From Candidatus Omnitrophota bacterium (GTDB lineage Bacteria > Omnitrophota > Gorgyraeia > Zapsychrales > Fredricksoniimonadaceae): 39,875 bases of DNA. The position numbers and the translations under genes are program-made. Positions within the stretch are counted from its first letter, which is position 1. Each line of letters starts with the position of its first letter. Shown here piece by piece: positions 9,629 through 39,875 of this stretch. Below the pieces are notes generated by a model that ran no database searches, was not told where the DNA came from, and was given only the letters and a program-made list of their open reading frames with translations. The stretch is taken from contig JAHFGE010000004.1 of the NCBI GenBank assembly GCA_023247575.1, positions 1 through 39,875 on the forward strand, read 5' to 3'.

Positions 9629-9632
9629 ATTT

Positions 9633-15046: not shown

Positions 15047-15061
15047 TCCCGAAGTAAAAAA

Positions 15062-15145: not shown

Positions 15146-15148
15146 AAC

Positions 15149-15226
15149 TGGTGGAGCTGAGGGGGATTGAACCCCTGACCTCTTCAATGCCATTGAAGCG
15201 CTCTCCCAAAACTGAGCTACAGCCCC
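15149..15226 (-). tRNA. tRNA-Ala (anticodon GGC), CCA encoded
   Basis: Acceptor GGGGCTG/CAGCTCC with the G3:U70 Ala identity pair, anticodon loop ATGGCAT, T-loop TTCAATC, 3' ACCA. Confidence 0.9.
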
Positions 15227-25323: not shown

Positions 25324-26095
25324 TTCCCTGCGCCTTGACGAGTTTACGGACGGTGTCAAACAAACCTTCCAAGATACGATTCGCTTCCGTTTCGTCTATT
25401 TCAAATTGTTCGATAATTTGTAGGACACTACTGCCATCATACCAGGCTTCAAATATCTTGATGTCGCGGGGCACATGGTAGCCGGCGAGGTCATTGATTA
25501 ATTGTTCGATGCCTCCTTCATAAGGCAACTCGACCTTTTCTCCTCCTTGATCCACTATTTCTTGGTTTTCAGCCACCGCCTCTTCCTCTGGAGAACCTAA
25601 TCCTTCATCCGTATCAATATCTTCTTCCTCGTCTTCTCCGGGGGGAAGATTCGGCTCATATCCTAAGCGCCGATAAGCTTCAGCCGCAGGAATAATATCC
25701 AGCCATGTAAGCTCGTCATCCTTACCCGTTGCCGGACTCTGAAGATTGATCTGGCCGGTCGACCTTAACAATCGGGTCGTTTCAGACTTAAGATGCCTCT
25801 TGAGTGCTTCATGAACAAATTCCCTCAATGTTTTACCTCTTTCTGGTGTATATTGAAGCATTTGGTCGATAACAATCTCGCAACCCGTCGCGCGCAAGTT
25901 ATCCGCCCAATGGCTGTCACTGCTGCGAGAATGCCGACTGACAAACTCTTCGATCATGGGGTAAAACGATAAGACCAAATCCGAAAAGGCTTTGGAGTCA
26001 TGCCGTATCCGCTTCCAGCAATCAAGCTGTTGGGTATCGCTCAACTCTTTGGCTGCGGCCAATTGGCGCCTCCACTGTTCATCCGCCGATGGCAT
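25298..26095 (-). other. Sigma-70-like module (regions 2 and 4) forming the giant ORF C-terminus
   Basis: ADNLRATGCEIVIDQMLQYTPERGKTLREFVHEALKRHL resembles region 2.1-2.4. IFEAWYDGSSVLQIIEQFEIDETEANRILEGLFDTVRKL resembles the region 4 HTH. An in-frame Met lies at 26095. Confidence 0.5.
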
Positions 26096-29000
26096 CTGCG
26101 GTATTTCAGGTTTAACCGTCTCTTTGGCTGGAAAATATTTTTTCATGTCTGTGGTCAACATCATCGGACGGAAAATAACTAAAAGCTCCATTTTATTCTC
26201 TGGACCAGGGATCTTTTTCATTCCATACATAAGCACAACTCTTTCTCTGCTATTTAACGTTGCCGCCCGTAAAAAAACCCAGTCACCTTCGACGTATCCT
26301 TTCGATTCAAGATAACCCGTTGGGAAATATAAAATACGACTTTCAATATTCGCATCCAAACTGATCCCCAAACGAGGGTTGCCGCCGACATCTCTTTTAG
26401 AAAAAAGTTGTACCCTAACTCTCGCCCATTTAGGAGGCATTCGTTTACCTTTTAAGGCTTGCAACACATAATGCATCCGAAGCAAAACTAACTTTGGACC
26501 TTCCTTTGAAGGCAGATAAACCCCAACCGGGGCGTGACGTAAACAAACTTCCTGATCTGGGCTAATCATGGCATAAAAAGCAAGAGCCGTAGGTAAAAGA
26601 CGAAACCGTCGACCTTTTAATAAATAATCGTAAATTTCTTTTCCCCCTCTGATCTGCGGAATATAAAAAGCTGCCCGGCCAAATCTTTTTGTCATTCCCG
26701 GCGTCGCCTCAAAGGGGAAGGGACCATCATCCAGTGTCAGTCCCGACCCTCTTCTGTGATCGCCTTTGAAGATAAATCTCTCTACTTTATGGATGAGAAG
26801 AGGATCAAGTGGAGCTCGAAAATAGGTCCTTTTTGCTTGCGCTGGTGGCAATTGCCCCTGTACTCCATAGGCATGCTCGATCGCTGGGTAAATATCGACG
26901 GCTGGAATTCTTTTCTCTAATTCGAAGGCTGACAACAATTGTGACATATTTTCCGGTTTCATATATGAAAACCGTGGATCAATTGATTTTACTCTATCCC
27001 CCATTTCTTTGAGCGTCTTCCCTTGCCGCAAACGCCTCAACTTCATGAACGGCCCCCAGGACAAACGCTCCCGCGCCTCTAAATAGTTCATTCCTATTAA
27101 AAATCGGGAAGGTTCAATATCGAGAATGGAAGCAATATGTAGGATATCTCCTGGTCTGTATTTGCCATCGCTTTGACTTGCTAAAAGATTACGCCGATAG
27201 TCATAAATATCCTGATAACCTAACAGCCTTGCCATCTCCTGGTCAGAAATACCGCGGTCATTCGCAATCGCCTTTATTCTTGCCCCAAAAGGTATCGATG
27301 CCAGCTGATCTACCAGCTGTAAATCACTAAGCGGCCGCTCATTGAATTCGGCCAACAAGGCTTTGCCTTTGCGTTGTTCCCGGATGTTTACCGCCTCTGG
27401 TAATCCACCGCTGACCATGGCGATATTCATGTCGGGGAGAAAAGTCAGACGGAAAGTTTGTTTGGCGATGAAATCCAATGACCTCTGATCGTGCGGGTTG
27501 TCTGATCCATAACCGCCAACCCGCAAAAATATCGGCACCAGTGAAGACTCTCCGGCCGAATTCCCAGGGCCGAAAATAACCTCGGCCCATGGGTGTGTCA
27601 ATTCAGTTGGAACAACAATGGCATAATCGCCAATCTCTATTTCACGAGATGGGGAAATTGGCATCGCAAGTCTCGTCACCAGGATCTGATATCCTTTCAA
27701 ATAAGCCCAGCCCAAATCTTCTGTCAACCGTTTATGCGAAATTGTTGGAAAAAAGGAATCGATCGTTTGAATTGGTTTATAATCATTATCGACCATACGG
27801 ACGGTAGGGATAAATCCACACTGGCTCTCGCTTCCTTGAGCGCTATTGACTGTAAAATAATAAGGAAAGGCAAACTGATCAAAGGCCAGCGAAACTGTTC
27901 CCTTTTTGAATCGCTCGTCAAAAAAGAAATAAAACGACGAATGGAGTTCGGGTAGGGAAAAAGTTTCCAAAGCAAATAAAATTTCTGAAAGGACCTGATG
28001 GGCATAGGGAACAACGTATCCTTTAACCCAGAATAAACCACTATTTGCAAATCCTTCGATTTTTCTTATTTTAAATACTTTTGCTTTCCCCAAGACCCTA
28101 ATACTTTGGCCCTCCTGATTTGTTTGATAGGCAACCAGTAGATCCTCAGCCCTTTCTTTCCCAAGAAACTGAACACCCTCGATACCACCGCTTTGATCAA
28201 CATGCAATGAATACAGGGCGCCGCGATAACCCGGAAAACGCACATCAAACAAGGGACGGACAGTCAGCCTTTCCATTGAAGGAAGGATTGACTCGATCCG
28301 TTTGCTCTGTATAATCTCTGCCTTACGTAGCCCTTCCATGGTTTCAAAAACGACCGCCGCAATTCGTCCGTCTTTAATCACACTGTTGAGCCTTCGGTTG
28401 ACGTAAATCGACCCACCAAAACCGGAAGCCTCAACAGGAACCCAGAATCCCAAATCCGGGACAAAGCGCCATTCGATCCGGATATCTTTTAGACCACTTT
28501 GATTCGCAGCCCTGACCTTGAGGGCGTTGATGCCCTGCGGCAGTTCCGCAGCGAAGATTCTGTTAGAGAAATCATCATTTAATAAGGGCAAATACCCATC
28601 AATGATCCGATGCCTCCGGCTCCATTGCCCTTCGGATAATTCCTTAAAGGTATCTTCACGGTTTCCTGCCCATCTATCAGCAATATATTGGGCATAGTAG
28701 GAAGACCGCAGATTAAACCTACGGACAAACGCGTCATGGAAAACCACAGGCGAAACCTTTCGTAGAACCGCGTGAATCCGTTTCTTGTCATCACTGCGGC
28801 CAACGGAGTCTAGCGTCTCTAGGATCATCTCTGTCAAATGTCCTGCCGCCTCTTGATTCTCACCAAAACCCTCCTCTTTCCCAGCAATCATCACTTCCCA
28901 TGGCCTTTGGATTTCAAAAATACATTTTACCTCTAGACCCCGAGCCTTAATCTCATCAAGGTTCTCTATCTCCTGTTGGCTTAACATATGCCCCGTACGT

Positions 29001-32000
29001 AATCCCCCGGCGCCAGGTAGATCCCGTGGATCAAAACTTACTAGATCATTGTCATCAAAAGACGAGACCGGAATTCTATCCAGAATAAATCCAGCGTTAA
29101 TCCCTGCTTTGTATATATTTCTTCCCGCTACCCAGGCCTGGGCAACGGCAATTTCTTCTCCCTCATGGTGGATATAGATAGTGTCCCCTTCTTTCCTGGG
29201 GCTCATCTGGCTAAGCTTCTCCCAGAGAAGATCAACCATCTCACCCCGTCCTGTATCGCGCAGTTTTTTGCAGAAACAATTCACGTCGGATACTTGACGT
29301 AAAAATATTCCCAACGGCATCCCAACTGGCCTCCTTGCGGGAACCTTTACAACAGTAGGTACGGTCTGCGCCTTCTGTTTTCTTTTGAGTTCTTCCCTAC
29401 GTCCTTCTTCTCGTAATTTTTCAAATTTTTGTTTTAGTGCTGCATCAATCTCAAGTTCCTTTCCAACCGACCAACATGGACTCGGCTCATTCAACCTCCT
29501 GAAATAATTAATTTCAACGTAAAGACGCCAGCCTACTCTCAAAAGAACGTACCCTCCAGCGACGATTAAGAAAAACATCCTGTAAAAATCAAACATGACA
29601 TAAATGGCAGAGGCGATTACTGGAACCAATGGAGCTCTATTGGTTACCATCTCGACTTTCGTTAGAGGGCGGCTTGTGATATTCGCATTTGTATCAGCCC
29701 TGGCTATGTCGCCAGTCAATAGTATGAACCCGCAGGTTACAAGCGCAAGCGGGACAAGGAACAAAGGCAGTATGCGCCCAGTCCGGCCGGGCTTGCAAAT
29801 CGACGGCTTCCCACAAATCGACGGCTTCCCCTCATTGACAACTTCTAACTGAGGTGCTATAGTTTGATTAACTAAAAAAGAGGATTGCCTTACGGTGCGC
29901 AAAACAAAAAACAGACTCAAAATGAATATTAAAACCCCGAATGGTAAAAGATTTAATGCCGACAAGTGGCTTACGGAACATTTCGAAGAGCTTGTCAATA
30001 AATTTCCCGGCGAATATATAATTGTGGCTAATGGAAAAATATATCGTAAAGGCCCCCCCCGCCAATTGAGAGATAGGGCCTTAAAAGAAAATCCAGGTGC
30101 TGTTATTATGGGGCACCGAGTTCCCCGTCCAAAAGATTTTCTATGCGCGCTCATCGGGCAATAAAGTTCCCTTACAAAGCCTACAGGATGTTTCCCTGTC
30201 CCATAGTTCCTGTTCAATTGCAGGGACCTAAAGGTTGGTTTACTGCTGACGCCTATGTGGATAGCGGGGCTTTTTATTCTGTTTTCTGTATTCAAGATGC
30301 TGAAATGATCGGGCTTGACTACAAGTGCGGTCGACGAAGTAGCATCTGTGTCGGGGACGGAGATTCTATCCCTGTATATTTCCATACCCTCCCTGTAACC
30401 ATAGGAAATATTTCTCTCAACGCTATAATCGGATTCTCCGAAAAACTGAAAGTAGGATTTAATCTCCTCGGCCGCAGAAGCATATTCGAACGATTTGTGG
30501 TGATCTTTGATGACGTCAGACGCCAGATCACCTTTATCCCGCGCCGATGAATTAACTTTCTCTAAAACATCAGCCCTGGCTATGTCACCGGTCAATAGTA
30601 TGAACCCGCAGGTTACAAGCGCAAGCGGGACAAGGAGTAAAGGCAGTATGCGCCCTGAGGACGATTCGACGGGCGCTGGCACAGAGGTAGACGAATTAGG
30701 TGCTGTGTCCCCGGAATTCTGTACTTTTCCCCATTCATCAAAGATAGCAGGCGACACCTCTGCCATCATCGACGGCAAAATTGTGCAGGCCAAGACAACG
30801 AGCAGCACAGGAACCGTCCCTAAATGCGCCAGCCCCGCTGCCCCGCCGTTGGCGGGGGCAAGAAGCGGGGCCAGCGCAATACCAACACCCACCGCTGCCG
30901 CTGCACCTACAAGCGCAGTATTTACTATCCTTGCTGATTTGTAAACTGTACCGTTTGCTTGACGAGAAATGTCTTGAGTTCTCTGGAGGGTTAAATGCCC
31001 CCTCAATGCTTGACCCGCTGCCGTATATGATGTATGCTTTGAAATGAAAAGAGGACTTATAATGCTAAGAGTGAACCCCTTGACCCAGAGAGAAACCAAA
31101 GCGGTTAATGTATACAAAGCACTGTTGCTTAAAGCATTTCCAGGCCGTATCCAAAACTTTTTACTTTTTGGGTCCAAAGCCCGTCGAACGGCTGGTCGCT
31201 GGTCAGATATCGATCTTCTAGTTGTTCTTACAAAAAACGGCCGCAAGGCCCGCAAAGAAATCGCCGCGCTCACCCATGAGCCGATTGCCAAATACGGCGT
31301 TGAACTTTCCCCTGTCGTAGTGACCGCGTCCGAGATGAAGGAATGGTCGCCATTTATCGCCCACATCAAAAAAGAAGCAATTCCCATATGAACAAGAAGC
31401 AAGAATACGTAAACCTGCGCCTGAGACTGGCCAAAGAGAAATTGAAAGTGGCGGAGCTTTTGGCTAAAAGCGGCAGTTACCGCGACTCCATTTCCAGAGC
31501 CTATTATGCGATCTTTTATGCCGCAAAGGCCTTTTTGCTGTTTCACGGGCAGGACCCGACTTCTCACAAAGGTGTCAGCGTTCTTTTTCATAAATTCTGT
31601 GCCACGCACAAGCACCCTGACGCAAGTTTCGCCAAAATGCTTTCTGTTCTTCAAGAAGCACGTCAAGAAGCCGATTACAAAGAAAAAGTACGCCTTACGA
31701 AACGCGACGCCAAAGAAGCCGTCGCCTCTGCGAGAATTTTCCTTAAGGAAATCTACCGTCTCATTCGGGGCCACTAAAAGCCAAAGTTTCGCAATTCCCA
31801 GCGTCCTTACTGCCGTTGAGGCCATGACCTTCATTGTGCCCCACCCAAAGAAATGGCAGCCATCCAAGCCATTGCTTGCGGCGAGAGGCGCGGCGGCGGG
31901 TTGAGTCTTATCGTCACGTAATTTCTTCAAAGACTCCTGGAAATCACACAATACGGCAGCGGTGATTTTGTGCGATCGGCTGGATTCTATTTCCAAAAAT

Positions 32001-35000
32001 TGACTCATCGTGTTCTTGGCGCATTCTTCAACAACGTTACGGTATTCTTGCTTCAACTCAAGCGGGAAAAGAACAGTGATGGTTTTAATAACTGCTGCAT
32101 TAAGCCGACAGGCTGATTCGCCGGGATTTTTTGGTCTTAACATTTCGGCCATGGCCCGGGCAAAAGTTAACTTCCACTCGTTGGGGCACTCAGTCCACAA
32201 ACATTTCAATTGATCCAGAGCTTTCTCTGGTGTAATACGTCCAAACACCTTTTCTCCCCAAATGGCATCCGCTAAGGCAATCATTTGTTCTCCCAAACTG
32301 TTGCGAATATAGTCAGGAATTTGTCCCTCGCCTAAGATGACAGGGGCAGGTCCTTCAACGGCCCTTGCTTGAGGCAATGGCTGGTGCAGGACAGTCGCAT
32401 CGGCTACGGTCAAGGCAGGCATGGGAATTGACGGTGAAGACGCTGGCTTCGATGGAACGGATTTCTGCGGGAGACCAACAACATTGCGACCCATAATGTT
32501 AGAAAGGACGTCTCTTTCCCGGTGCTCAGGGATCAGGCCCGCTTCCCATCTATTTATCTTCCAAGTATACATTCTCAGGAATTGTGTAAAACCTGTGGGA
32601 TCACGGTCCTGCCAATGGCCCAAATATTGTTCACGTTCTTCTGCCGTCTTAAATGAACGAAGCACCGGCACATCAAAGACATCTCCCTCGATTAACAGTT
32701 TTAACGTCACAGTTTCCCATGTCGCGCAAAGCCTCTCTCGAACGAGTTTCAATGTTTTAGGATATTTCCCGGCATCCTGCCACGCCTGGGAAAATGTCAT
32801 TGCTCGCGTTATAATAACTGGGTCCACACCCAGGGCCCGTGCCAGGCAGAAAAGATTGTAAGGCAATGGGGCGCCGGCCTGCCACGCAAACCGCCCTTCA
32901 TTTTTAACGATGCCCCCTTGCTCTCTTTCCATATTAAAGTAACTTGTATATCCTATGTTGGCCTTCTTCAAGAATTCTCTGATGTCTTCATCAGGGCTCA
33001 CCCAAATCCTCAAAAATGCGATACGGTAACCGGTGGGTTTATCCTTAAGATGAACCAAGACTTCTTCCGGGAGAGCCAGTGTGCATGAAATCTCCCCATA
33101 ATGAGCCAGAGGTATAATAACTTTATCTTCCCACTGCACGTATGGTGTTTGCGGATTGATCCGCCCTTTAAATTCCTTAACTTTATCTTTAACTTCCTCA
33201 TAGGCAGCCATTCGTTCTCTATTAAGCCTCCCAATACGTTCCTGCCCGGCGGCTCTTTGGACAATGATGTTGCGGATTGCCTCTTCGTCTTCGAGAGCGG
33301 TTTCACCTGCTTTCCAGGCCTCTGCTTTGTCGGCTGTAAATCCTGATCCTAACAGCGCCTGTACACCTTGCGTCGAGAAACGTATGGAACCATCAAACCA
33401 ATAGGCCAAGAGGGCAGCGAGAATGTCTTTTCCAGGAGTTACCAGCCCCATCATGTTTTCTCGCTGATCATCTTCCATAAACGGATTAAGCCGACGGACG
33501 TCTATGCCGAGCATATGGGCCGCATCGGTTTGATTTCTATTTGCAGCAACAAGCGCCAGGGAATACGCACGCCAATGCAATTCTTCCAAAGACAACGTGG
33601 CCGGGTGCTCTGCTTTCAGAAAAATGCCGAATTGTTCTCCCAGAATTTTCCTTGCCCGTCCTGGATGACGTAATTCGGAATGCTCATGCAAAATAAACGC
33701 CAATGGTGTTAATGTTTTCTGGTACAATCCGCGCTCACTGACACCCAAGCGATCCCTCAATTCCTTTCTCACTCCTGCTCCCATTTCGGTGGCATCCTGT
33801 GACATGGCTGCAATCGTCGACAGAATTCCGATAAGTTCAATAAGTTCAACGAGAGTCGCCTCTTCTTTACCTGCACTTTCTTTTCGCAACCAGCTATAAA
33901 AAGACGGCCATATAAAGCCCGCGGGACCGGATAGGAGTGTTTGAACTTGTGTTGATTCACCTGATTCCTGTAAAAGGCGTACGGCCTGGGTTTGTTTTTT
34001 CTGCGCAGCACGGGTGTCCAAGCCGATGATGTTCTCTAAATAGCATGCCACCAAAGTCAGCGGCTGCGGGCTCCGTTTTTTGAGAACAGTATATTCGCCA
34101 AGGGCATCCAGCAAAAATTTGTGTCTTCGCTCAAGGTCGGTTGAGGCAAAGCCCCTGAGGGCCATGATCAACGTTTGCCACTCGAGGGTCTTTTTGGCTT
34201 CCTCCAGCGGCACATTCTTTTGCCGTTGATCCGATAACCATTTTAAAAAACGCTCCAATAGGGTACCGGTTGTTGGGAGAGGTTTAGGGATGACTTTCAA
34301 AGGAGCTGCTGGCAATTCGACAGTTATTTTTGCATCTAAAGGCGCAACGGCCTTAGTCGTTGGACCAATTGCTGTTGATTGAACTGGCGGGGCCAACGGG
34401 GCCACCCCCACTGCCGCTGGTTTCGTTTCCGTTAAACTTTTGGCCGCTGCTTCCGCCGCCGGTTGATCTTGACTGGCAGATGGCAAGGCTGGTCCAGTAA
34501 CTGGCGTTTCAGCACCAGTCTCAACCGGACCTTTCACAGGGCTACTGGTTATCCGAACCAATGTGGCCACCAGTTTGTCATAATGCAATCTGGCGTTTGA
34601 ACGGACGGAAAGGAACCTTTCTGGTGTTGAAAATTTGTACTGAGAATCAAACGTACCCAAAAGCCGAAAGACCTCCGCCAATTTCCCACGAATAACCTCC
34701 ACGGTAGTAGTGCCTAATTGAAAATTTAGAAAATCAAGTTCTGCATCTACCAGGCTAAGCGATGCCTCAAGAAGCATTCTAGGGCCTTCCTCTAACATAT
34801 CCATGTTACTGGATGCCTCTGTCAACAAATGTCTGACCCTTTCCCTCGCGGCATCGACTATTGTTCTTTCCCTTTGAAGTTCTTCTGCGGCCTGATGAAT
34901 AATCTCTCTGGCTCTGGTAAGATACCGGTTAAACTCGTTAAGATCGAATCTCTCCGGCCTAGATCTTTGTATAGAGGACCACGATGTTGTGCAAAGAAAG

Positions 35001-38000
35001 GCAAAGCCGGCGATGGCCGCAAGGAAAAGCCACGGGGACCCGGCTGCCAATGCCAATACAGCAAGGAAAAACACTACCGGCGAGCGAAGCTTGGTGAGAT
35101 CTATCGCCGGTTTTCCTTTATAGTTCAACTGTCCGTTTCTATTCGGAAGTTTTGCGGTTCTAGCCTTCAGCAATGCGCTCCATAGGCTATGACGGATAAC
35201 TTCAATGGTCAGCCGATGTTTTGCCCTTTGGCGACCGTGCGAGAATACAAGTCGTCCGTCAAGATAAACCTCTGTTTGAGCGCCCGGAGTTTTATAATCG
35301 TTCATGATTCTTCGAAAGAAATTTCTCAACAACCCATTGTAAGAAGCTGCAGGCGGAACAGAAAAATCATAACGGACCAAATCCGGCCGGTCTTTGAGGT
35401 TGTCCAGCACATGCTCCAGACTAGTGACCACACCGCGCGGGTTAAGCCACACTGCCTGCGCCGGCAGGACGGCCGTGAATTCCTGATGACCGCTGCGAAA
35501 TACAGCACGTGCTGTACCCATGATGGTTCGCCGCAGGCAATCCACTAAATCTCCACCGACGAAAAGGCCGGCCACTGGCAACGGCTTCGAGGGCGTAAAA
35601 TGTCCCCATTCGCTCTCGTGTGGCCTTAGTCTGAAACGACGCAGTGCGTCCGGATAAAACCACTGCCCATTGATCAAAATATAGCGGCGCTCGAGTGTGG
35701 GCCAAGCGAGCACTCCTTTATACTCGTCCATGAAGAGCTCATCTGGATGCGTTAGAACAAAAAAGTTTAGGGGTGTGCCCCTTAGCTTGAAATTCGACTG
35801 GACGACGGACGCCGATACTATACCGAGGAGGAAAAAGCCGGCGATGGCGAGAACAACAAGTAATGCAGGGACTATGCCATACGAAACAATCTTGTGGACC
35901 GTTACCCAAACCCGTTTCGAGGCCGCCGAAAGCGACTTCTTAAGGGACTGTTTGAGCATATACCGTCCCGTTTTACCGGGCAGCGCCAAAAGACCACTTG
36001 AGAGAAAACCAGCTTTCGGGAAGAACCGGAAGGCAATGGTAAGAATTTTCTTCGGCAAATATGTCAATACCAAAGCTAAAGCTATCGTTGTCCAGAAAAA
36101 TTCTTCGGTAATCTGCCCAAAAGAAGAACGCAGTTTAGGATGAACCGCTACCCACATCTCTTCAAATTCAAGTGCCTCAACAACCAGATGTCTTGCGAAC
36201 TTCTCGATCTTGCGTGACGGAATGCCGGACATGACTCCAAGACCCCAGATAATGGTCCGTGTCGTCTCAACGTAATGCTGAATACTGACGACCGGTCCCT
36301 TAAAAGGCGGCGGCGCAAGAAAAATGAATCCCTTATGAATGAAACCAGCAAGCCGTATGTTTTGTTCTTCAAGATGATCAAAAAACTTCTTGTCGCCGAC
36401 AATGATGATGTCGTTAGGCTCTATCCTCTCGAGCAAATTCCTATTTATTGGTTGAATTCGAGCCACGTTTTCCTCCATGTCATTCGGAAAATAATAGCGG
36501 ACATTTTCTAGATACCCTGCGCCGATGGGGCCAATTCTTAATGCCTCCTTCACACTATGCACCTGCCACAATGACAGCGATTTACCGTCGAGTGTCCGCC
36601 AGGCAAAGCGTTCTCGCTGAGAGCGATGAAACACCGCCGCCAACCAAGCCAAGCCGACCATGGTAAGGGCGCCGATAATCCACGGCGCCGCGATATGCAC
36701 AGCGGCCATAAGCCCGCCCCAGCCCGGCCCGTCAAAAACTGATCCAATTTTTGACAAGGTCTCGCCAAGACCGAAGGTCATGGCGGACACGTCGGGAAGC
36801 ATGAGGGCGAGGGACCATAGATTAAGGTATTGCAACGACGCGGGGAAAATAGATCCGATACTGCCAGTGATATGAATTCTGGCTTGACGTGATAATCGTT
36901 CTATACTACGATGGCTTTTGTGGAGAATGCCGTCAAACCAATCAACTTTAGCTCGCACGCCAAGGAACAATTTACCTACCGTGGAACAAACGAAAGCGAA
37001 ATAACTTCTGCGATCCGCAATTCGCGGTGGGAAAAGGCGGAACTCGGGCGCATGCAATGCAAGAAAGATCTTACCTACAATAAAGATTGGAACAATAAGT
37101 ACTACGCCACAAAACAAGTAAAGCCAATATTCATTGAGGAAAAAGATAGAATTGCAGTGATTACCGTTTACGTGTATTATTTCTAATAAGGAGGAAACAT
37201 GCGCATTACTTATGACCCAACTGTTGATGCCTTGTATATAAGATTCGAGGAAACTACCGTTACTACCAAGCACCTTTCCGAGGGCATAGCCGCTGACTAC
37301 GCCCCAGACGGCAGCCTTGCCGGCATCGAAATTCTGGACGCGGTAAGACGCTTTGGGGGAGACAAGACAACTCTCAAGAAGGTTACTCTTGAAGAAATAG
37401 GTTTGGCTGCTTAGGAAGACACCGACCAGTACAATCAAGGAAAGAATGTTTGTCAATATCCCTGGCGGGCCATGAAACAACGGGCCGAACCAGCCCGCCA
37501 CGTCGGGAAGCATGAGGGCGAGGGAAATGAAATTAAGACATGCTGTCCACCGAGCCATTGGACTGCTCTGAGCCGGCTCTTGAAGTCCGAACTCTTTAAG
37601 GAGATTCTCTTTATCAAAGGGCTGTTGACCCATACGCGCAAAATACTCGGCATTGTCGATGAAATTTTGTATGTCCTTGAATGGAAATGCCCTAAGTATT
37701 GAAAATCCCTGCGGTGTCAATAAGAGGACCTTAAAAAAGAATTGATACGTTCCCTCAACAGCTGCTTTAACTCCTTCGGCATTGAGACCAAGAATAATAT
37801 ATTTCAATAAATCTGCGGATAAATGAACATAAAAAGCATAGTAATCGGCATATTGAAGAGTCAGGGCTGATTCATGGACATGGCCGCGGCGCTGTTGACT
37901 AATATCTGGAGAATCCAAAGCCTTTTGATAGGCCCCTTCGATAGCTTCGCTTCCTCCCGGAACATAATCGGTCCTTCGGATTATGGCAAATATTTCGGCA

Positions 38001-39799
38001 AAAACCTCTTTTTGGTTCTCGTCACCAATCACGCCACGGATGGCTATTTGAAACTGCTCCTTGATCCCTCCAGCCAGCCTCTTTAAAACAAAATTAAAAT
38101 CTTCATGCGCCCCCTGTCCTTCCATGGGAAGATCAAGAATATAATGCAATTGCAAAATCGTCTGGGTGGCGTCGGCAGGTTTGCCTTTCCCTGGAGGCAG
38201 CTGACGCAAATGAAAATCATGCAGTAAAGCTGCTAAAAAGGCCGTGATCAAATCCCTTTTGGTTTTAATCAATCCGCGCCCGCGGGCTGTCTTTAAATTG
38301 CTCAAGGTCACAACGACATTATGCAGATGGCTATGAAAGAATTGCCACTCTAAGCCCATCTGTTGATACAAAGCGGCAATGATTTCGATAAGCTTTCTTG
38401 CGCTCTCCAGTTCACTGGGATTAAGATGGACGGGTAAACCATTATCGGGACCTAAAAATTTTAGAATCTCGTTGGTAAACTGACGGATGAGCGCCCTGAA
38501 CCGCCCCGCCGGATCTTCCGCAGAAGGAAATGCTGACTCCCATGCCTCACGGTCAAGGGGGCCATAGAGGACATTTACGAGATCCCTTTGGTCGTCTCTG
38601 TTGGCTGCCGGCAGAATAGTACCTCCAATATCACTACCTGCAAGCAGCACCAATCCGCTGATGATTGTCGCTACTAAAAACCCCAGCGCCCCGTGGCCGC
38701 TTAAAACATGCCCCAGCAACCCAACGCCAAAAACCACGAAGATCATCAAGCCAATCATCGGCCACATCCGTCGATTGACAAGGCTTAAGAAAAATGTTAT
38801 ATTTAAACCAAAAGGAATTTCTCTATGACTAAACTTTTGCAGGCTACTTACGAACACGGGCGACTGAAACCATCGTTGCCTCTCAATCTCCCTGAGCACC
38901 AGCGGGTCATTCTGGCGGTTGTGGTCACTGAAGACGACATCCCCGGCCTTCTGACTGCTAAACTGGCTGAAACGGGCAAAAGCTTCGACTTCCTCAACGA
39001 CCCTCGCGAAGACATTTACAATCTTTCTGACGGCAATGAACTCTAGCAAAAAATCTATTGAACGTGGCGATGTTGTGCTTATTCCTTTCCCTTTTACTGA
39101 CCTATCCAGTACCAAAGTACGCCCGGCCGTCATTATTTCCGCCAACCCACAGCAAAATGACCTTGTAGTCGCTTTTATCTCTTCTGTTTTAACCGATAAA
39201 CCCTCCAATAGCGATGTCGTCCTGGCCAGCAATGCTCCCAATTTTTCTGCGACCGGTCTTAAAAAAGATTCTGTTTTTAAAATGAACAAACTCGTCACGA
39301 TATCTTCAGCGCTAATTTTAAAACGGTTAGGCCACGTAGCCACCGCCTTCCAAAACCAATTAGACAATGCTCTTAAAAAAGCATTAAATTTATCATAAAA
39401 TACCTCTGCCATTGTTGCGGTCAAAGGAGCTGTAGGCGCCATGGCCGGGACAGGCGCCATACCGCTACGAACTGCGAACTGTGTACTATAAAGGCGGGCA
39501 CTATGTGGTGAGCTTGTCGAACCATTAAAGGTCCTGTGCATGGCAATGGCATCTTGCAGGGTGCCAGCATTCACCATATTCCATGCCGCTTCACGGATGG
39601 CCTGGCGCTTGTGCTTGGCCCCATACAAATGAAGCCACACAAAGATATGGATGGCCCAACGGCCTATAATCCCATAGGCCCAGCGTAAGATGGGGGTTTC
39701 AATCCCCGGGGCCCATTCCAATAAAATCCTGTCCGCCAAAGGCCGGGTGGAGGCAAACCGACCCAACAACCAGTACGCCATCCTGAAGGGCGGCAACAT
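25298..39799 (-). CDS. Giant 4,833-aa multi-TM, multi-module protein of unknown function
   Basis: 14,502 nt without a stop, in a genome where neighbouring genes use TAA, TAG and TGA. It has several hydrophobic TM clusters and HD-like, XRE-HTH-like and sigma-70-like segments. The first ATG is at 39799. The frame is also open for the last 25 codons to the window edge, which is not statistically informative. Confidence 0.7.
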   Translation of the reverse strand: MLPPFRMAYWLLGRFASTRPLADRILLEWAPGIETPILRWAYGIIGRWAIHIFVWLHLYGAKHKRQAIREAAWNMVNAGTLQDAIAMHRTFNGSTSSPHSARLYSTQFAVRSGMAPVPAMAPTAPLTATMAEVFYDKFNAFLRALSNWFWKAVATWPNRFKISAEDIVTSLFILKTESFLRPVAEKLGALLARTTSLLEGLSVKTEEIKATTRSFCCGLAEIMTAGRTLVLDRSVKGKGISTTSPRSIDFLLEFIAVRKIVNVFARVVEEVEAFARFSQFSSQKAGDVVFSDHNRQNDPLVLREIERQRWFQSPVFVSSLQKFSHREIPFGLNITFFLSLVNRRMWPMIGLMIFVVFGVGLLGHVLSGHGALGFLVATIISGLVLLAGSDIGGTILPAANRDDQRDLVNVLYGPLDREAWESAFPSAEDPAGRFRALIRQFTNEILKFLGPDNGLPVHLNPSELESARKLIEIIAALYQQMGLEWQFFHSHLHNVVVTLSNLKTARGRGLIKTKRDLITAFLAALLHDFHLRQLPPGKGKPADATQTILQLHYILDLPMEGQGAHEDFNFVLKRLAGGIKEQFQIAIRGVIGDENQKEVFAEIFAIIRRTDYVPGGSEAIEGAYQKALDSPDISQQRRGHVHESALTLQYADYYAFYVHLSADLLKYIILGLNAEGVKAAVEGTYQFFFKVLLLTPQGFSILRAFPFKDIQNFIDNAEYFARMGQQPFDKENLLKEFGLQEPAQSSPMARWTACLNFISLALMLPDVAGWFGPLFHGPPGILTNILSLIVLVGVFLSSQTYFFKSNLLESCLVSPKASYRVQNFDAGKAAVWGVVSGYALGKVLGSNGSFLESYIQGINSWVISNAHVSSLLEIIHVNGNHCNSIFFLNEYWLYLFCGVVLIVPIFIVGKIFLALHAPEFRLFPPRIADRRSYFAFVCSTVGKLFLGVRAKVDWFDGILHKSHRSIERLSRQARIHITGSIGSIFPASLQYLNLWSLALMLPDVSAMTFGLGETLSKIGSVFDGPGWGGLMAAVHIAAPWIIGALTMVGLAWLAAVFHRSQRERFAWRTLDGKSLSLWQVHSVKEALRIGPIGAGYLENVRYYFPNDMEENVARIQPINRNLLERIEPNDIIIVGDKKFFDHLEEQNIRLAGFIHKGFIFLAPPPFKGPVVSIQHYVETTRTIIWGLGVMSGIPSRKIEKFARHLVVEALEFEEMWVAVHPKLRSSFGQITEEFFWTTIALALVLTYLPKKILTIAFRFFPKAGFLSSGLLALPGKTGRYMLKQSLKKSLSAASKRVWVTVHKIVSYGIVPALLVVLAIAGFFLLGIVSASVVQSNFKLRGTPLNFFVLTHPDELFMDEYKGVLAWPTLERRYILINGQWFYPDALRRFRLRPHESEWGHFTPSKPLPVAGLFVGGDLVDCLRRTIMGTARAVFRSGHQEFTAVLPAQAVWLNPRGVVTSLEHVLDNLKDRPDLVRYDFSVPPAASYNGLLRNFFRRIMNDYKTPGAQTEVYLDGRLVFSHGRQRAKHRLTIEVIRHSLWSALLKARTAKLPNRNGQLNYKGKPAIDLTKLRSPVVFFLAVLALAAGSPWLFLAAIAGFAFLCTTSWSSIQRSRPERFDLNEFNRYLTRAREIIHQAAEELQRERTIVDAARERVRHLLTEASSNMDMLEEGPRMLLEASLSLVDAELDFLNFQLGTTTVEVIRGKLAEVFRLLGTFDSQYKFSTPERFLSVRSNARLHYDKLVATLVRITSSPVKGPVETGAETPVTGPALPSASQDQPAAEAAAKSLTETKPAAVGVAPLAPPVQSTAIGPTTKAVAPLDAKITVELPAAPLKVIPKPLPTTGTLLERFLKWLSDQRQKNVPLEEAKKTLEWQTLIMALRGFASTDLERRHKFLLDALGEYTVLKKRSPQPLTLVACYLENIIGLDTRAAQKKQTQAVRLLQESGESTQVQTLLSGPAGFIWPSFYSWLRKESAGKEEATLVELIELIGILSTIAAMSQDATEMGAGVRKELRDRLGVSERGLYQKTLTPLAFILHEHSELRHPGRARKILGEQFGIFLKAEHPATLSLEELHWRAYSLALVAANRNQTDAAHMLGIDVRRLNPFMEDDQRENMMGLVTPGKDILAALLAYWFDGSIRFSTQGVQALLGSGFTADKAEAWKAGETALEDEEAIRNIIVQRAAGQERIGRLNRERMAAYEEVKDKVKEFKGRINPQTPYVQWEDKVIIPLAHYGEISCTLALPEEVLVHLKDKPTGYRIAFLRIWVSPDEDIREFLKKANIGYTSYFNMEREQGGIVKNEGRFAWQAGAPLPYNLFCLARALGVDPVIITRAMTFSQAWQDAGKYPKTLKLVRERLCATWETVTLKLLIEGDVFDVPVLRSFKTAEEREQYLGHWQDRDPTGFTQFLRMYTWKINRWEAGLIPEHRERDVLSNIMGRNVVGLPQKSVPSKPASSPSIPMPALTVADATVLHQPLPQARAVEGPAPVILGEGQIPDYIRNSLGEQMIALADAIWGEKVFGRITPEKALDQLKCLWTECPNEWKLTFARAMAEMLRPKNPGESACRLNAAVIKTITVLFPLELKQEYRNVVEECAKNTMSQFLEIESSRSHKITAAVLCDFQESLKKLRDDKTQPAAAPLAASNGLDGCHFFGWGTMKVMASTAVRTLGIAKLWLLVAPNETVDFLKENSRRGDGFFGVAFRKAYFFFVIGFLTCFLKNRKHFGETCVRVLVRGTEFMKKNADTFVRSRVLPVKQQKGLCGIKDRIIGSGNGVAVTAAFSQKLRHFQFLFGQSQAQVYVFLLLVHMGIASFLMWAINGDHSFISDAVTTTGESSTPYLAIGSWVSAAISLRALRPFFVRTTRRSISDQRPAVRRALDPKSKKFWIRPGNALSNSALYTLTALVSLWVKGFTLSIISPLFISKHTSYTAAGQALRGHLTLQRTQDISRQANGTVYKSARIVNTALVGAAAAVGVGIALAPLLAPANGGAAGLAHLGTVPVLLVVLACTILPSMMAEVSPAIFDEWGKVQNSGDTAPNSSTSVPAPVESSSGRILPLLLVPLALVTCGFILLTGDIARADVLEKVNSSARDKGDLASDVIKDHHKSFEYASAAEEIKSYFQFFGESDYSVERNISYGYREGMEIYRDRISVPDTDATSSTALVVKPDHFSILNTENRIKSPAIHIGVSSKPTFRSLQLNRNYGTGKHPVGFVRELYCPMSAHRKSFGRGTRCPIITAPGFSFKALSLNWRGGPLRYIFPLATIIYSPGNLLTSSSKCSVSHLSALNLLPFGVLIFILSLFFVLRTVRQSSFLVNQTIAPQLEVVNEGKPSICGKPSICKPGRTGRILPLFLVPLALVTCGFILLTGDIARADTNANITSRPLTKVEMVTNRAPLVPVIASAIYVMFDFYRMFFLIVAGGYVLLRVGWRLYVEINYFRRLNEPSPCWSVGKELEIDAALKQKFEKLREEGRREELKRKQKAQTVPTVVKVPARRPVGMPLGIFLRQVSDVNCFCKKLRDTGRGEMVDLLWEKLSQMSPRKEGDTIYIHHEGEEIAVAQAWVAGRNIYKAGINAGFILDRIPVSSFDDNDLVSFDPRDLPGAGGLRTGHMLSQQEIENLDEIKARGLEVKCIFEIQRPWEVMIAGKEEGFGENQEAAGHLTEMILETLDSVGRSDDKKRIHAVLRKVSPVVFHDAFVRRFNLRSSYYAQYIADRWAGNREDTFKELSEGQWSRRHRIIDGYLPLLNDDFSNRIFAAELPQGINALKVRAANQSGLKDIRIEWRFVPDLGFWVPVEASGFGGSIYVNRRLNSVIKDGRIAAVVFETMEGLRKAEIIQSKRIESILPSMERLTVRPLFDVRFPGYRGALYSLHVDQSGGIEGVQFLGKERAEDLLVAYQTNQEGQSIRVLGKAKVFKIRKIEGFANSGLFWVKGYVVPYAHQVLSEILFALETFSLPELHSSFYFFFDERFKKGTVSLAFDQFAFPYYFTVNSAQGSESQCGFIPTVRMVDNDYKPIQTIDSFFPTISHKRLTEDLGWAYLKGYQILVTRLAMPISPSREIEIGDYAIVVPTELTHPWAEVIFGPGNSAGESSLVPIFLRVGGYGSDNPHDQRSLDFIAKQTFRLTFLPDMNIAMVSGGLPEAVNIREQRKGKALLAEFNERPLSDLQLVDQLASIPFGARIKAIANDRGISDQEMARLLGYQDIYDYRRNLLASQSDGKYRPGDILHIASILDIEPSRFLIGMNYLEARERLSWGPFMKLRRLRQGKTLKEMGDRVKSIDPRFSYMKPENMSQLLSAFELEKRIPAVDIYPAIEHAYGVQGQLPPAQAKRTYFRAPLDPLLIHKVERFIFKGDHRRGSGLTLDDGPFPFEATPGMTKRFGRAAFYIPQIRGGKEIYDYLLKGRRFRLLPTALAFYAMISPDQEVCLRHAPVGVYLPSKEGPKLVLLRMHYVLQALKGKRMPPKWARVRVQLFSKRDVGGNPRLGISLDANIESRILYFPTGYLESKGYVEGDWVFLRAATLNSRERVVLMYGMKKIPGPENKMELLVIFRPMMLTTDMKKYFPAKETVKPEIPQMPSADEQWRRQLAAAKELSDTQQLDCWKRIRHDSKAFSDLVLSFYPMIEEFVSRHSRSSDSHWADNLRATGCEIVIDQMLQYTPERGKTLREFVHEALKRHLKSETTRLLRSTGQINLQSPATGKDDELTWLDIIPAAEAYRRLGYEPNLPPGEDEEEDIDTDEGLGSPEEEAVAENQEIVDQGGEKVELPYEGGIEQLINDLAGYHVPRDIKIFEAWYDGSSVLQIIEQFEIDETEANRILEGLFDTVRKLVKAQGNGTSELPK
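26880..27290 (-). other. Two XRE-type helix-turn-helix-like segments inside the giant ORF
   Basis: RGISDQEMARLLGYQDIYDYRRNL and RLRQGKTLKEMGDRVKS...SQLLSAFELEKRIP. Confidence 0.4.
29693..29779. repeat. 87-bp direct repeat, copy 1 (flanks module A)
   Basis: 83/87 identical to 30569-30655. On the minus strand it encodes GRILPLFLVPLALVTCGFILLTGDIARAD. Confidence 0.95.
29796..29831. repeat. 18-bp tandem duplication (caaatcgacggcttccc[a/c] x2), encoding GKPSIC x2 in the giant frame
   Basis: Read directly. It abuts the module A -35 hexamer. Confidence 0.9.
29835..29863 (+). promoter_or_regulatory. Promoter TTGACA-N17-TATAGT for module A
   Basis: -35 at 29835-29840 and -10 at 29858-29863. GAGGA SD at 29880-29884, 10 nt before the GTG at 29895. 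Confidence 0.6.
29895..30164 (+). CDS. DUF5678-like small protein (module A, gene 1)
   Basis: WLTEHFEELVNKFPGEYIIVANGKIY follows the DUF5678 pattern. GTG start with SD (alternative ATG at 29922). Antisense to the giant ORF. Confidence 0.5.
   Translation: MRKTKNRLKMNIKTPNGKRFNADKWLTEHFEELVNKFPGEYIIVANGKIYRKGPPRQLRDRALKENPGAVIMGHRVPRPKDFLCALIGQ
30143..30550 (+). CDS. Retropepsin-like (clan AA) aspartyl protease (module A, gene 2)
   Basis: PIVPVQLQGPKGWFTADAYVDSGAFYSV has the DSGA catalytic motif in its usual context. Overlaps gene 1 by 22 nt. Confidence 0.6.
   Translation: MRAHRAIKFPYKAYRMFPCPIVPVQLQGPKGWFTADAYVDSGAFYSVFCIQDAEMIGLDYKCGRRSSICVGDGDSIPVYFHTLPVTIGNISLNAIIGFSEKLKVGFNLLGRRSIFERFVVIFDDVRRQITFIPRR
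30569..30655. repeat. 87-bp direct repeat, copy 2 (flanks module A)
   Basis: Offset from copy 1 is 876 bp (3 x 292). Encodes GRILPLLLVPLALVTCGFILLTGDIARAD. Confidence 0.95.
31010..31038 (+). promoter_or_regulatory. Promoter TTGACC-N17-TATGCT for module C
   Basis: -35 at 31010-31015 and -10 at 31033-31038. GAGGA SD at 31051-31055, 6 nt before the ATG at 31062. Confidence 0.5.
31062..31391 (+). CDS. MNT-type nucleotidyltransferase (antitoxin of HEPN/MNT pair)
   Basis: LLFGSKARRTAGRWSDIDLLVV is the canonical GSxxR...SDxD motif. I prefer the ATG at 31062 (SD, downstream of the promoter) over the track start at 31044. Confidence 0.88.
   Translation: MLRVNPLTQRETKAVNVYKALLLKAFPGRIQNFLLFGSKARRTAGRWSDIDLLVVLTKNGRKARKEIAALTHEPIAKYGVELSPVVVTASEMKEWSPFIAHIKKEAIPI
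31388..31777 (+). CDS. HEPN domain protein (toxin of HEPN/MNT pair)
   Basis: SRAYYAIFYAAKAFLLFHG...TSHKG and RQEADY HEPN motifs. ATGA overlap with the MNT stop. Confidence 0.88.
   Translation: MNKKQEYVNLRLRLAKEKLKVAELLAKSGSYRDSISRAYYAIFYAAKAFLLFHGQDPTSHKGVSVLFHKFCATHKHPDASFAKMLSVLQEARQEADYKEKVRLTKRDAKEAVASARIFLKEIYRLIRGH
34270..34555 (-). other. Pro/Ala/Thr-rich low-complexity linker in the giant ORF
   Basis: SSPVKGPVETGAETPVTGPALPSASQDQPAAEAAAKSLTETKPAAVGVAPLAPPVQ... Confidence 0.7.
36788..36814. repeat. 27-bp exact direct repeat, copy 1 (flanks module B)
   Basis: cacgtcgggaagcatgagggcgaggga, identical to 37499-37525. Encodes SLALMLPDV in the giant frame. Confidence 0.95.
36911..37186 (+). 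CDS. DUF4258-like protein (module B, toxin-like)
   Basis: INFSSHAKEQFTYRGTNESEITSAI ... IAVITVY follows the DUF4258 pattern. Confidence 0.55.
   Translation: MAFVENAVKPINFSSHAKEQFTYRGTNESEITSAIRNSRWEKAELGRMQCKKDLTYNKDWNNKYYATKQVKPIFIEEKDRIAVITVYVYYF
37199..37414 (+). CDS. DUF2283-like protein (module B, antitoxin-like)
   Basis: MRITYDPTVDALYIRF...DGSLAGIEILDA is the typical DUF2283 signature. Strong AAGGAGG SD at 37189-37195. Confidence 0.75.
   Translation: MRITYDPTVDALYIRFEETTVTTKHLSEGIAADYAPDGSLAGIEILDAVRRFGGDKTTLKKVTLEEIGLAA
37499..37525. repeat. 27-bp exact direct repeat, copy 2 (flanks module B)
   Basis: Offset from copy 1 is 711 bp (3 x 237). Weaker similarity continues for ~18 bp. 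Confidence 0.95.
37950..38420 (-). other. HD-phosphohydrolase-like region of the giant ORF
   Basis: HSHLHNV...(~35 aa)...AALLHDFH (HD dyad at 38216-38221) ... IIRRTDY has H..HD..D spacing. Confidence 0.35.
38775..38803 (+). promoter_or_regulatory. Promoter TTGACA-N17-TATATT for module D
   Basis: -35 at 38775-38780 and -10 at 38798-38803. AAGGA SD at 38812-38816, 8 nt before the ATG at 38825. Confidence 0.6.
38825..39046 (+). CDS. DUF104/AF2212-like antitoxin (module D)
   Basis: ATYEHGRLKPSLPLNLPEHQRVILAV matches the antitoxin fold signature. Overlaps the toxin gene by 11 nt. Confidence 0.6.
   Translation: MTKLLQATYEHGRLKPSLPLNLPEHQRVILAVVVTEDDIPGLLTAKLAETGKSFDFLNDPREDIYNLSDGNEL
39036..39398 (+). 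CDS. PemK/MazF-family toxin (module D)
   Basis: ERGDVVLIPFPFTDLSSTKVRPAVIIS is the canonical MazF N-terminal beta-strand signature. 120 aa. Confidence 0.85.
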   Translation: MNSSKKSIERGDVVLIPFPFTDLSSTKVRPAVIISANPQQNDLVVAFISSVLTDKPSNSDVVLASNAPNFSATGLKKDSVFKMNKLVTISSALILKRLGHVATAFQNQLDNALKKALNLS

Positions 39800-39841
39800 G
39801 CCTGCCCCGACCGCAGCGTCGGGGGCGGGCCCTGTAGATTT

Positions 39842-39869
39842 ATTATAGGGCGGCGACTTTGTTACCCAA
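39842..39869 (-). promoter_or_regulatory. Weak candidate promoter TTGGGT-N16-TATAAT upstream of the giant ORF ATG
   Basis: Minus-strand -35 at 39869-39864 and -10 at 39847-39842. Hairpin ccccgac-N6-gtcgggg at 39805-39824 lies between it and the ATG at 39799. Confidence 0.3.
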
Positions 39870-39875
39870 TCGAGC

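Follow-up and report, generated by a model that had tools for sequence, protein, structure and literature searches.

A giant open reading frame with four antisense gene pairs

We analysed a stretch of 39,875 bp from a Candidatus Omnitrophota bacterium (contig JAHFGE010000004.1, hereafter the window), in which eight small genes on the plus strand, grouped into four toxin-antitoxin (TA) or TA-like modules, lie wholly inside one giant open reading frame (ORF) on the minus strand. The giant ORF occupies 25298..39875(-), comprises at least 4,859 codons, and was characterized by stop counts, hydropathy and a codon-usage log-likelihood ratio (LLR). Over its span the giant frame contains the terminal stop only, whereas the other five frames hold 167-292 stops. 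The ORF listing gives this frame as 25298..39799(-) with 4833 aa. Since the frame is unbroken up to base 39874, where the contig (39,875 bp) stops, the gene is 5'-truncated; 14.6 kb of its 3' part is present. The preliminary description of this locus had reported a stop-free ORF of 14.5 kb, which was correct as to the absence of stops and too short as to the length of the gene. A second contig, ENA ERZ27297570 (39,308 bp), encodes identical proteins in the same gene order, and there the giant gene is called at 5025 aa.

A crude hydropathy scan of the giant protein marked about 18 hydrophobic, transmembrane (TM)-like segments, and the modules are placed among such segments. Coding character was scored by the LLR, which is a stop-independent score per codon, with host-gene values calculated leave-one-out. 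Host genes scored 0.16 ± 0.05 per codon. The giant frame outside the modules scored 0.03 to 0.125 in three long stretches and about 0 in two short pieces, and across the modules it scored -0.02 to -0.10. The TA frames of modules C, B and D scored 0.055 to 0.16, so that within the modules the TA frames exceed the giant frame, while elsewhere the giant frame is superior; the score thus tells on which strand the main coding constraint rests. Scans of the giant region for Rfam families, tRNAs and tandem repeats returned nothing but one 18-nt, 1.9-copy repeat at 29796-29830. This is a perfect tandem duplication (CAAATCGACGGCTTCCCA x 1.9, read as GKPSICGKPSIC in the giant frame) situated between the left flanking repeat of module A, described below, and the module A promoter.

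All eight plus-strand ORFs were found at the positions previously reported for them. They had all been assigned to recognizable families, and when profile searches were judged against the curated Pfam cut-offs, five of the eight assignments stood and three (A1, A2 and B1) fell below threshold. Module A is preceded by a promoter-like site at 29835..29863(+) with the sequence TTGACA-17-TATAGT and an upstream TG (extended -10), which matches 11 of 12 positions, and by an AAGAGGA Shine-Dalgarno (SD) site ahead of the GTG at 29895. A1 (29895..30164, +, 89 aa) is DUF5678-like (E = 0.0065, below cut-off); on its complement the giant frame has 0 stops and the other two antisense frames have 2 and 9. 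A2 (30143..30550, +, 135 aa) is a retropepsin-like protein that carries the DSGA motif (Asp_protease_2, E = 0.007, below cut-off) and had no match in a PDB sequence search. Its homologues fall into 697 clusters at 50% identity, of which 120 reach E <= 1e-10, all about 130 aa long; together with the DSGA motif, this makes A2 a real conserved gene.

Module C has a promoter-like site at 31010..31038(+) (TTGACC-17-TATGCT, 9 of 12 matches). C1 (31062..31391, +) is an MNT nucleotidyltransferase (NTP_transf_2, E = 3e-7, above cut-off) in which GSKARRTAGRWSDIDLLVV matches the MNT GS...DxD motif as GS...DID. It is 47-60% identical to the MNT genes of four comparison loci (L014, L018, L020 and L022) and scored below the equivalog cut-off of the MntA model NF047752 (E = 4e-5, 23 bits against 60). 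C2 (31388..31777, +) is a HEPN protein of the HEPN-T type (PF05168, E = 9e-22, above cut-off) with homologues of up to 81% identity, and it is joined to C1 by an ATGA overlap. C2 carries no canonical R-x4-6-H RNase motif: the window has RQEADY, and its relatives have R[LN][DN]ADY (R-x4-Y). A conserved SHKG histidine lies upstream of RQEADY, and a comparable upstream His occurs in the AF0298-type HEPN-T variant (PMC3710099). RNase activity of this HEPN protein may use an alternative site or be absent, and its activity as a toxin is uncertain.

Module B consists of B1 (36911..37186, +, 91 aa), which is DUF4258-like (E = 0.008, below cut-off; 16.9 bits against 25, with profile positions 1-70 of 71 covered) and had no relative in a PDB sequence search, and B2 (37199..37414, +, 71 aa), a DUF2283 protein (E = 1e-15, above cut-off) with a strong SD site, AAGGAGG. 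Upstream of module B we found only weak promoter candidates. Module D has a promoter-like site at 38775..38803(+) (TTGACA-17-TATATT with an upstream TG, extended -10, 11 of 12 matches) and an AAAGGA SD site ahead of the ATG at 38825. D1 (38825..39046, +, 73 aa) is a putative antitoxin of the AF2212-like family (PF01954, E = 1.4e-5, above cut-off). D2 (39036..39398, +, 120 aa) is a PemK/MazF toxin (PF02452, E = 8e-14, above cut-off) that covers positions 1-108 of the 109 in the PemK profile and overlaps D1 by 11 nt. Module D has the traits of MazEF/PemIK systems, namely a PemK/MazF domain, a small coupled upstream partner and its own predicted promoter. To our knowledge, toxin activity has not been established for the families of modules A and B, which we therefore call TA-like only.

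The plus strand has three promoter-like matches of 11/12, two of which have an extended -10, and these two stand directly upstream of modules A and D. The promoters previously named for A, C and D were recovered as such, with no good match for module B; the SD sites, the MNT/HEPN ATGA coupling and the module D overlap were also as described. Ten other ORFs inside the giant region, which served as controls and as possible decayed cassettes, gave no significant Pfam match (best E 0.11), and for want of Pfam support we rejected other plus-strand ORFs as decayed cassettes. Scans of viral contigs with the HEPN, MazF and protease-like proteins gave no match, the NCBIfam search contributed little for the window genes, and exact-product look-ups in a gene-position index had the HEPN, MazF and giant proteins on record at no locus as called genes.

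Stop avoidance on the complement of the nested genes

Taking 19 neighbouring genes as the source of codon usage, we redrew the synonymous codons of the eight proteins and counted stops in the giant frame. The expected number was 1.1-5.7 stops per gene, or about 23 in the eight genes, and the observed number was 0. The probability of observing none was 0.0016-0.27 for the individual genes (0.0024 for D1), with a product of ~4e-14. The earlier claim that eight genes in four modules lie inside an unbroken giant ORF was borne out, and the pattern exceeds chance by far.

The way in which stops are avoided depends on codon phase. Five genes (A2, C2, B1, B2 and D1) are codon-aligned with the giant frame, and three (A1, C1 and D2) are out of phase. 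In the aligned phase, a TTA, CTA or TCA codon of the sense strand reads as a stop in antisense. The five aligned window genes contain none of these codons, even though TTA is the host's commonest Leu codon; per Leu plus Ser codons the counts are 0/15 for A2, 0/23 for C2 and 0/16 for D1. The out-of-phase genes contain 2 (A1), 4 (C1) and 10 (D2) of them, and the ten in D2 are harmless because D2 is out of phase with the giant frame. We pooled 24 TA genes from the window and from five comparison loci (L003, L014, L018, L022 and L030, described below), each of which has exactly one open antisense frame. TTA, CTA and TCA made up 0/216 of the Leu and Ser codons in aligned genes and 59/182 in out-of-phase genes (Fisher P = 2e-23), with the caveat that the division into aligned and shifted genes is partly circular for L014 and L022. 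As a test of overlapping coding, the TA frames are under purifying selection, as set out below, and the giant frame avoids stops (P ~4e-14 in the window, P = 2e-23 pooled). These codon counts clearly indicate that selection at synonymous sites in the TA genes maintains the transparency of the cassettes to the giant frame.

Direct repeats around two of the modules

Module A is flanked by an 87-nt direct repeat, with a left copy at 29693..29779, which encodes GRILPLFLVPLALVTCGFILLTGDIARAD in the giant frame, and a right copy at 30569..30655 that is 95% identical to it. The spacing of the copies is 876 nt (3 x 292). Module B is flanked by a 39-nt direct repeat with a left copy at 36788..36826, encoding LNLWSLALMLPDV in the giant frame, and a right copy at 37499..37537 (87% identical), spaced by 711 nt (3 x 237). 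Both pairs score far above shuffled sequence. In the giant protein the module A repeat reads GRILPL[LF]LVPLALVTCGFILLTGDIARAD, a hydrophobic segment that resembles a signal or anchor sequence; with two copies present, the filler opposite module A is bounded by twin anchor-like or cleavage-like segments. The module A repeat peptide ends in A-R-A|D, an AxA-type motif, and the module B repeat peptide, LN[LF][WI]SLALMLPDV, is likewise hydrophobic. No boundary motif common to the four window modules was found. We rejected an identity of the repeats with integron attC sites, since the module A repeat shows no attC-like folding (z = -0.35), the A and B repeats differ from each other, and modules C and D have none.

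Recurrence of the nested arrangement at other loci

The comparison loci comprised L003, which is a contig of an Omnitrophota metagenome-assembled genome (MAG), and several further loci. L003 carries a nested antisense pair consisting of a PIN toxin (PIN_3, 4e-18; TIGR00305, 1e-20) and a VapB15-like antitoxin (4e-9), with its own promoter-like sequence TTGACT-17-TATATT and SD site. The antitoxin gene is codon-aligned and contains zero TTA, CTA or TCA codons, although TTA makes up 47% of the Leu codons of this genome (P(0) = 0.0006); the PIN gene is out of phase and contains eight. Loci L018 and L019 carry the MNT-HEPN cassette closest to that of the window (HEPN 81% identical). Their opposite strands are stop-free over the whole lengths of 1335 and 944 nt, and their flanks are unrelated to the window.

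A further example was L030, a 20.4-kb part of a 63.6-kb Hainich groundwater contig with 40% GC (ENA ERZ1292639, Hain_H51_02um_R3_113, record 36006-56398). Here one minus frame is open over at least 6,530 codons, and the giant ORF includes the domains Bac_transf (7e-44), Ribul_P_3_epim, HATPase_c, Response_reg, Methyltransf_11, Radical_SAM, GNAT and PHP. Nested on the plus strand are two MNT-HEPN cassettes, a HicB-HicA and a BrnT-BrnA pair, and for every nested gene the host frame is free of stops, against 3-12 in each gene's remaining antisense frames. Across the loci, all ten nested cassettes (10/10) are antisense to their host ORF, and two bridge cases, described below, have the same orientation. 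The nested arrangement is evidently found again in further giant ORFs, and there with different TA families. Homologues of modules A, B and D were absent from all comparison loci in tblastn searches, which confines the lineage test to module C. Also inside the giant frame of L030, on the plus strand, are a TM-like protein of 75 aa next to a called gene of 35 aa (L030:2927-3273) and a called 137-aa ORF (L030:17769-18182); the source annotation records no Pfam match for the 35-aa and 137-aa genes.

The MNT-HEPN cassette lineage

We compared five MNT-HEPN lineages (window, L018, L014, L020/L030 and L022) with HEPN identities of 55-81%. Nucleotide identity was 0.75-0.87 at second codon positions, 0.59-0.83 at first positions and 0.31-0.55 at third positions, and this order (second above first, and both well above third) indicates that the TA proteins are under purifying selection and that their synonymous sites are near saturation. 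In all five lineages the HEPN gene contains zero TTA, CTA and TCA codons. The antisense translations are only 0.28-0.50 identical, and the frame is therefore constrained to stay open and not to encode a conserved protein. Upstream of MNT, the -35 element TTGAC[TC], the extended -10 element TGnTATAnT and the SD site are conserved in the five cassettes, and the surroundings are not. MNT-HEPN relatives with identities as low as 54% all have this antisense frame open and retain the promoter. Comparison of these sequences establishes the stop-free complement as an old trait within the MNT-HEPN cassette lineage.

In two groups of loci the cassette does not lie within one continuous ORF. At L014-L017, from four samples, it is flanked by two large minus-strand ORFs (2156 and 1149 aa) in one and the same frame, and in L014 this shared frame has 24 stops, every one within the cassette. 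The open antisense frame of the L014 cassette (9225-10062) is in another phase and forms a separate ORF of about 275 codons, which bridges the cassette and shares 27 nt with the beginning of the 1149-aa ORF downstream. The region L014:9225-10088, and likewise that of L015-L017, looks like an out-of-phase insertion that splits a giant gene into three packed ORFs. At L022-L029 the cassette has PilZ genes on one side and, on the other, a 992-aa gene that itself comes after a gene of 6046 aa. An open antisense frame of 352 codons (L022:598-1653, also in L023-L029) reaches 150-180 nt past the TA genes and leaves gaps of about 57 and 70 nt to its neighbours. In every case the cassette can still be translated across, which suggests selection on ribosome coverage or coupling. 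Alternatively, the L014 and L022 copies recently left an in-frame site.

Downstream of the giant ORF in the window are p152 (24901-25359, -), which it overlaps by 62 nt in a different frame, and the GH-like gene p622 (23031-24899, -), with 1 nt between the p152 stop and the p622 start. Homologues of p622 with 45-50% identity and shared synteny occur in contigs titled Candidatus Omnitrophica or Omnitrophota, in keeping with a probable Omnitrophota-type source of the window. In two Omnitrophota MAG contigs with 34% GC, L002 and L003, one frame is stop-free from end to end (2398 and 2556 codons), and the p152/p622 homologues are embedded in these frames (L002:3543-5975, L003:2475-4889); in other relatives p622 is a stand-alone gene. 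Because p152 and p622 are separate in the window and fused in L002 and L003, the giant gene must both fuse with and split from its neighbours. The giant parts of L013, L002 and L003 had no detectable similarity to the giant ORF of the window.

Interpretation and alternative explanations

The explanation that we consider probable is that autonomously transcribed TA and TA-like cassettes live antisense inside translated giant genes, which is a statement about structure and evolution. The giant gene would be membrane-anchored and fast-evolving, and four cassettes would have integrated into it antisense, possibly through recombination, which would have placed A and B between in-frame direct repeats. 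Each cassette would be frame-transparent, in that its complement has no stop in the host frame and the repeat-defined inserts (A and B) are multiples of three. Ribosomes on the giant mRNA would read through the cassette, adding about 210-260 residues of largely hydrophobic filler, while the cassette would be transcribed in the opposite direction from its own sigma-70-type promoter. The cassettes may be selfish or defence elements for which giant genes offer a large, insertion-tolerant harbour, and they would persist because the host gene stays translatable, or at least because ribosomes are kept on the mRNA and the downstream part is expressed. They would be tolerated, and probably specialized, owing to their stop-free complement in host phase. 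The antisense orientation would follow from the fact that an insert in sense orientation brings its own in-frame stop, whereas an aligned antisense frame can be cleared by synonymous changes alone. For the host the cassettes may do nothing at all, or they may stabilize the giant gene, give abortive-infection defence or act in antisense regulation.

The preliminary description had viewed the modules as autonomous antisense units with both strands kept coding, and this view gained from the frame-specific avoidance of TTA, CTA and TCA, the conserved -35, -10 and SD elements and the purifying selection on the TA proteins. It was strengthened structurally by the same architecture at the independent loci L003, L018/L019 and L030. 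The expectation that homologous loci would keep the genes inside one ORF held at these loci and did not hold at L014 and L022, where the cassettes lie between separate ORFs and an antisense bridge ORF is kept. Of the three hypotheses offered there (addiction, antisense throttling and a mosaic that tolerates in-frame inserts), the mosaic fits best, given the repeat spacings of 876 and 711 nt.

Several observations weigh against this explanation. Expression of both strands is something that we infer from sequence. The giant protein has no Pfam match, no PDB match and no homologue among 5.8 billion proteins, and its codon signal is weak compared with that of host genes (0.03-0.125 versus 0.16). 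A single-sequence AlphaFold2 model of its best-scoring segment (encoded by 37568-38632) had a predicted local distance difference test score of 47 and was uninformative. Modules C and D have no flanking repeats above shuffle level, the neighbour genes from about 3.1 kb to 25 kb include no integrase Pfam, and no recombinase is nearby. The circularity noted above touches L014 and L022. At L014 and L022 the open frames exist without a continuous host ORF, so a single polypeptide is not obligatory, and the open antisense frame could serve a purpose intrinsic to the cassette. Finally, vertical co-divergence of a cassette and its fast-evolving host gene is inseparable from horizontal mobility.

If the pattern were an artefact of mis-assembly, of shadow ORFs of the giant gene or of a frame open by chance, then the orphan status and weak codon signal of the giant ORF would find a ready explanation, as would the fact that gene callers never give both strands together. 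However, the giant frame runs for 4,859 codons free of stops where the other frames hold 167-292, the giant gene is called likewise on contig ERZ27297570, whose proteins and gene order are identical, the small ORFs have significant family matches and homologues of up to 81% identity where control ORFs have none, and the pattern recurs in unrelated assemblies; we therefore regard an artefact as highly improbable. It would also be surprising, though less so, if the open antisense frame encoded a third product of the cassette itself, such as a membrane peptide, which fuses to the giant ORF when in phase. The frame is open in all MNT-HEPN relatives that we examined, stand-alone copies included, it extends 150-180 nt beyond the TA genes in L022, and its translation has TM-like hydrophobic stretches. 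Yet a sense gene rich in K and E is expected to give a hydrophobic peptide in antisense, antisense amino acid identity is 0.28-0.50 where HEPN identity is 0.55-0.81, the TA third positions (antisense first positions) are near saturation, and six or more unrelated TA families are equally stop-free. About as improbable, in our judgement, is regulation of the giant gene by convergent transcription from TA promoters that are derepressed under stress and throttle it. Near-consensus promoters do oppose giant-gene transcription and are conserved among cassettes, and the consistent antisense orientation (10/10 nested cassettes and the two bridge cases) would fit such a role. That bias is equally well explained by the stop of a sense insert and synonymous clearing of the aligned antisense frame, and a regulatory role would need no intact TA proteins, yet the TA proteins are under purifying selection.

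TA-mediated stabilization of integron arrays and genomic islands is established in other systems, and the cassettes could similarly benefit the host if post-segregational killing penalized deletions in a long, costly and recombination-prone gene. The modules are intact, have predicted promoters, and are spread along the giant ORFs, with four in 9.7 kb of the window and four in 10.1 kb of the 20-kb L030. We nevertheless think addiction of this kind unlikely, because the direct repeats at A and B would permit clean loss of a cassette, cassettes are also found between ordinary genes (L022), and a selfish explanation requires no host benefit. Somewhat more credit, though still less than even, is due to the idea that selection acts on continuous translation and not on the polypeptide, so that ribosomes crossing the cassette avert Rho-type polarity, mRNA decay and pairing with the TA transcript. 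The in-frame fusion of the window and the separate coupled bridge ORF of L014 and L022 would then be two ways to the same end. The poor conservation of the antisense translation would be expected, as would the bridge ORF of about 275 codons at L014-L017 with its 27-nt overlap, the 352-codon open frame that spans from the 992-aa gene to PilZ at L022-L029, and the tolerance of p152/p622 fusion and fission (fused in L002 and L003, separate in the window). The bridge ORFs could also just be relics of an earlier in-frame state, and that of L022 neither adjoins nor overlaps its neighbours, given its gaps of ~57 and ~70 nt. The idea would also call for Rho or transcription-translation coupling in these organisms.

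A junction motif in L030

Between L030:800 and 20393, a motif of 15-17 nt (cCGCCGCCTCGCCGgTg on the giant-ORF strand, peptide AASP[V/M/I]) occurs 26 times, on one strand and in one codon phase, at spacings of 78-2325 nt that are all multiples of 3. Its codons are GC-rich and rare for a genome of 40% GC, which indicates conservation at the nucleotide level. The motif flanks every nested TA cassette of L030 and also divides the sense enzyme units, for example where the end of HATPase_c meets AAASPV and where TASPL meets the start of the receiver domain. It also flanks the stand-alone L022 cassette (L022:694 and 1522). It is absent from the window, where the peptide motif '[AS]SP' is not enriched (4 observed versus 2.4 ± 1.4). 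The motif may serve in-frame recombination or attachment, or it may mark a site of processing. Since it brackets TA cassettes and separates enzyme units, we tentatively suggest that some Omnitrophota giant ORFs may in part be cassette arrays in one frame, whose units are swapped at short in-frame junctions. Enzyme modules would stand in sense and TA or defence modules in antisense orientation, the latter forming a dedicated frame-transparent class that moves among giant ORFs. If true, such an array would be a new kind of mobile element and a new route to building giant genes.

Relation to known systems

Omnitrophota giant ORFs are multi-kilocodon and TM-rich, their sequences are mostly unique, and 15% have no Pfam match (bioRxiv 10.64898/2026.06.07.730766; 10.1101/2023.11.21.568195). 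The window ORF resembles the giant genes of West-Roberts et al. (2023) and Nielsen and Lui (2026) in being multi-kilocodon, TM-rich and Pfam-dark, and with 15% of the class lacking a Pfam match its want of homologues fits that class. The L030 ORF resembles the 'multi-enzyme' class of Omnitrophota giant genes. The preliminary description knew of no described case of the nested arrangement, and our full-text searches, which included both Omnitrophota giant-gene preprints and the HEPN survey, likewise found no description of antisense genes nested in giant ORFs.

Nested antisense coding is itself known, the nearest precedent being pic/setBA. In Shigella flexneri 2a and enteroaggregative Escherichia coli a two-gene, promoter-sharing operon is nested in pic/she, and both strands encode proteins. 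The operon, set1B-set1A (ShET1), lies on the opposite strand of the pic/she autotransporter gene (PMC3626585). The likeness is that of a two-gene operon wholly within a large complementary-strand ORF; the differences are that pic/set1BA is one operon in a 4-kb gene of a single lineage, whereas here there are four cassettes per giant ORF, drawn from mobile TA families and found in several genomes, and that lineage-wide, frame-specific codon avoidance keeps the host frame open. The nearest functional analogy is with the TA cassettes of sedentary chromosomal integrons (Vibrio superintegrons), small promoter-bearing TA modules in both cases. General background to this comparison is given in bioRxiv 10.1101/2023.11.21.568050. 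The Vibrio cassettes have their own promoters, are interspersed in a long array, are often inverted and are thought to stabilize the array. In contrast to integrons, the module A repeat forms no attC-like structure, the neighbour genes from about 3.1 kb to 25 kb include no integrase, and the array is a single continuous reading frame, which obliges each cassette to have a complement without stops. Inteins and self-splicing introns are also selfish inserts that spare the host reading frame. The resemblance is one of analogy only, without homology, since no RNA or protein splicing takes place and the insert would be translated through as opposite-strand filler. The modules share with canonical MazEF, HepT-MntA (type VII), VapBC, HicAB and BrnTA systems the domains, gene order, overlapping junctions, promoter and SD site, and differ in the unusual position inside an antisense ORF and in the HEPN motif, R-x4-Y and not R-x4-6-H.

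These long antisense overlaps (~600-800 nt) have partners that are both identifiable, and their constraint is measurable as TTA/CTA/TCA loss, which offers overlapping-gene theory a clean natural system instead of contested single cases. Opposite-strand read-through would be a third way for selfish or defence cassettes to reside inside genes, besides splicing of RNA or of protein. Gene calls include the giant ORF or the nested genes but never the two together; for the Hainich contig the caller reported the TA genes and passed over the giant ORF, which has at least 6,500 codons. TA and defence repertoires and giant-gene structure in Omnitrophota are thus probably mis-annotated systematically. 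The fusion and fission of p152/p622, the bridge ORFs and the L030 motif bear on the origin of genes of 10^4-10^5 codons and on whether these are translated as single polypeptides.

Neighbouring genes in the window

The remainder of the window is unexceptional. Positions 1-22200 hold ordinary housekeeping genes, among them a biotin cluster (BioA-, BioD- and BioC-like methyltransferase, hydrolase, BioF-like and BirA) and genes for PGI, MnmA, RlmN, AccA, a YkuD transpeptidase, a ComM-like Mg-chelatase and a GGDEF protein, and tRNA-Leu(CAA) and tRNA-Ala(GGC) are located at 15061-15226. Downstream of the giant gene are a PilZ gene and a gene for a coiled-coil protein of 602 aa.

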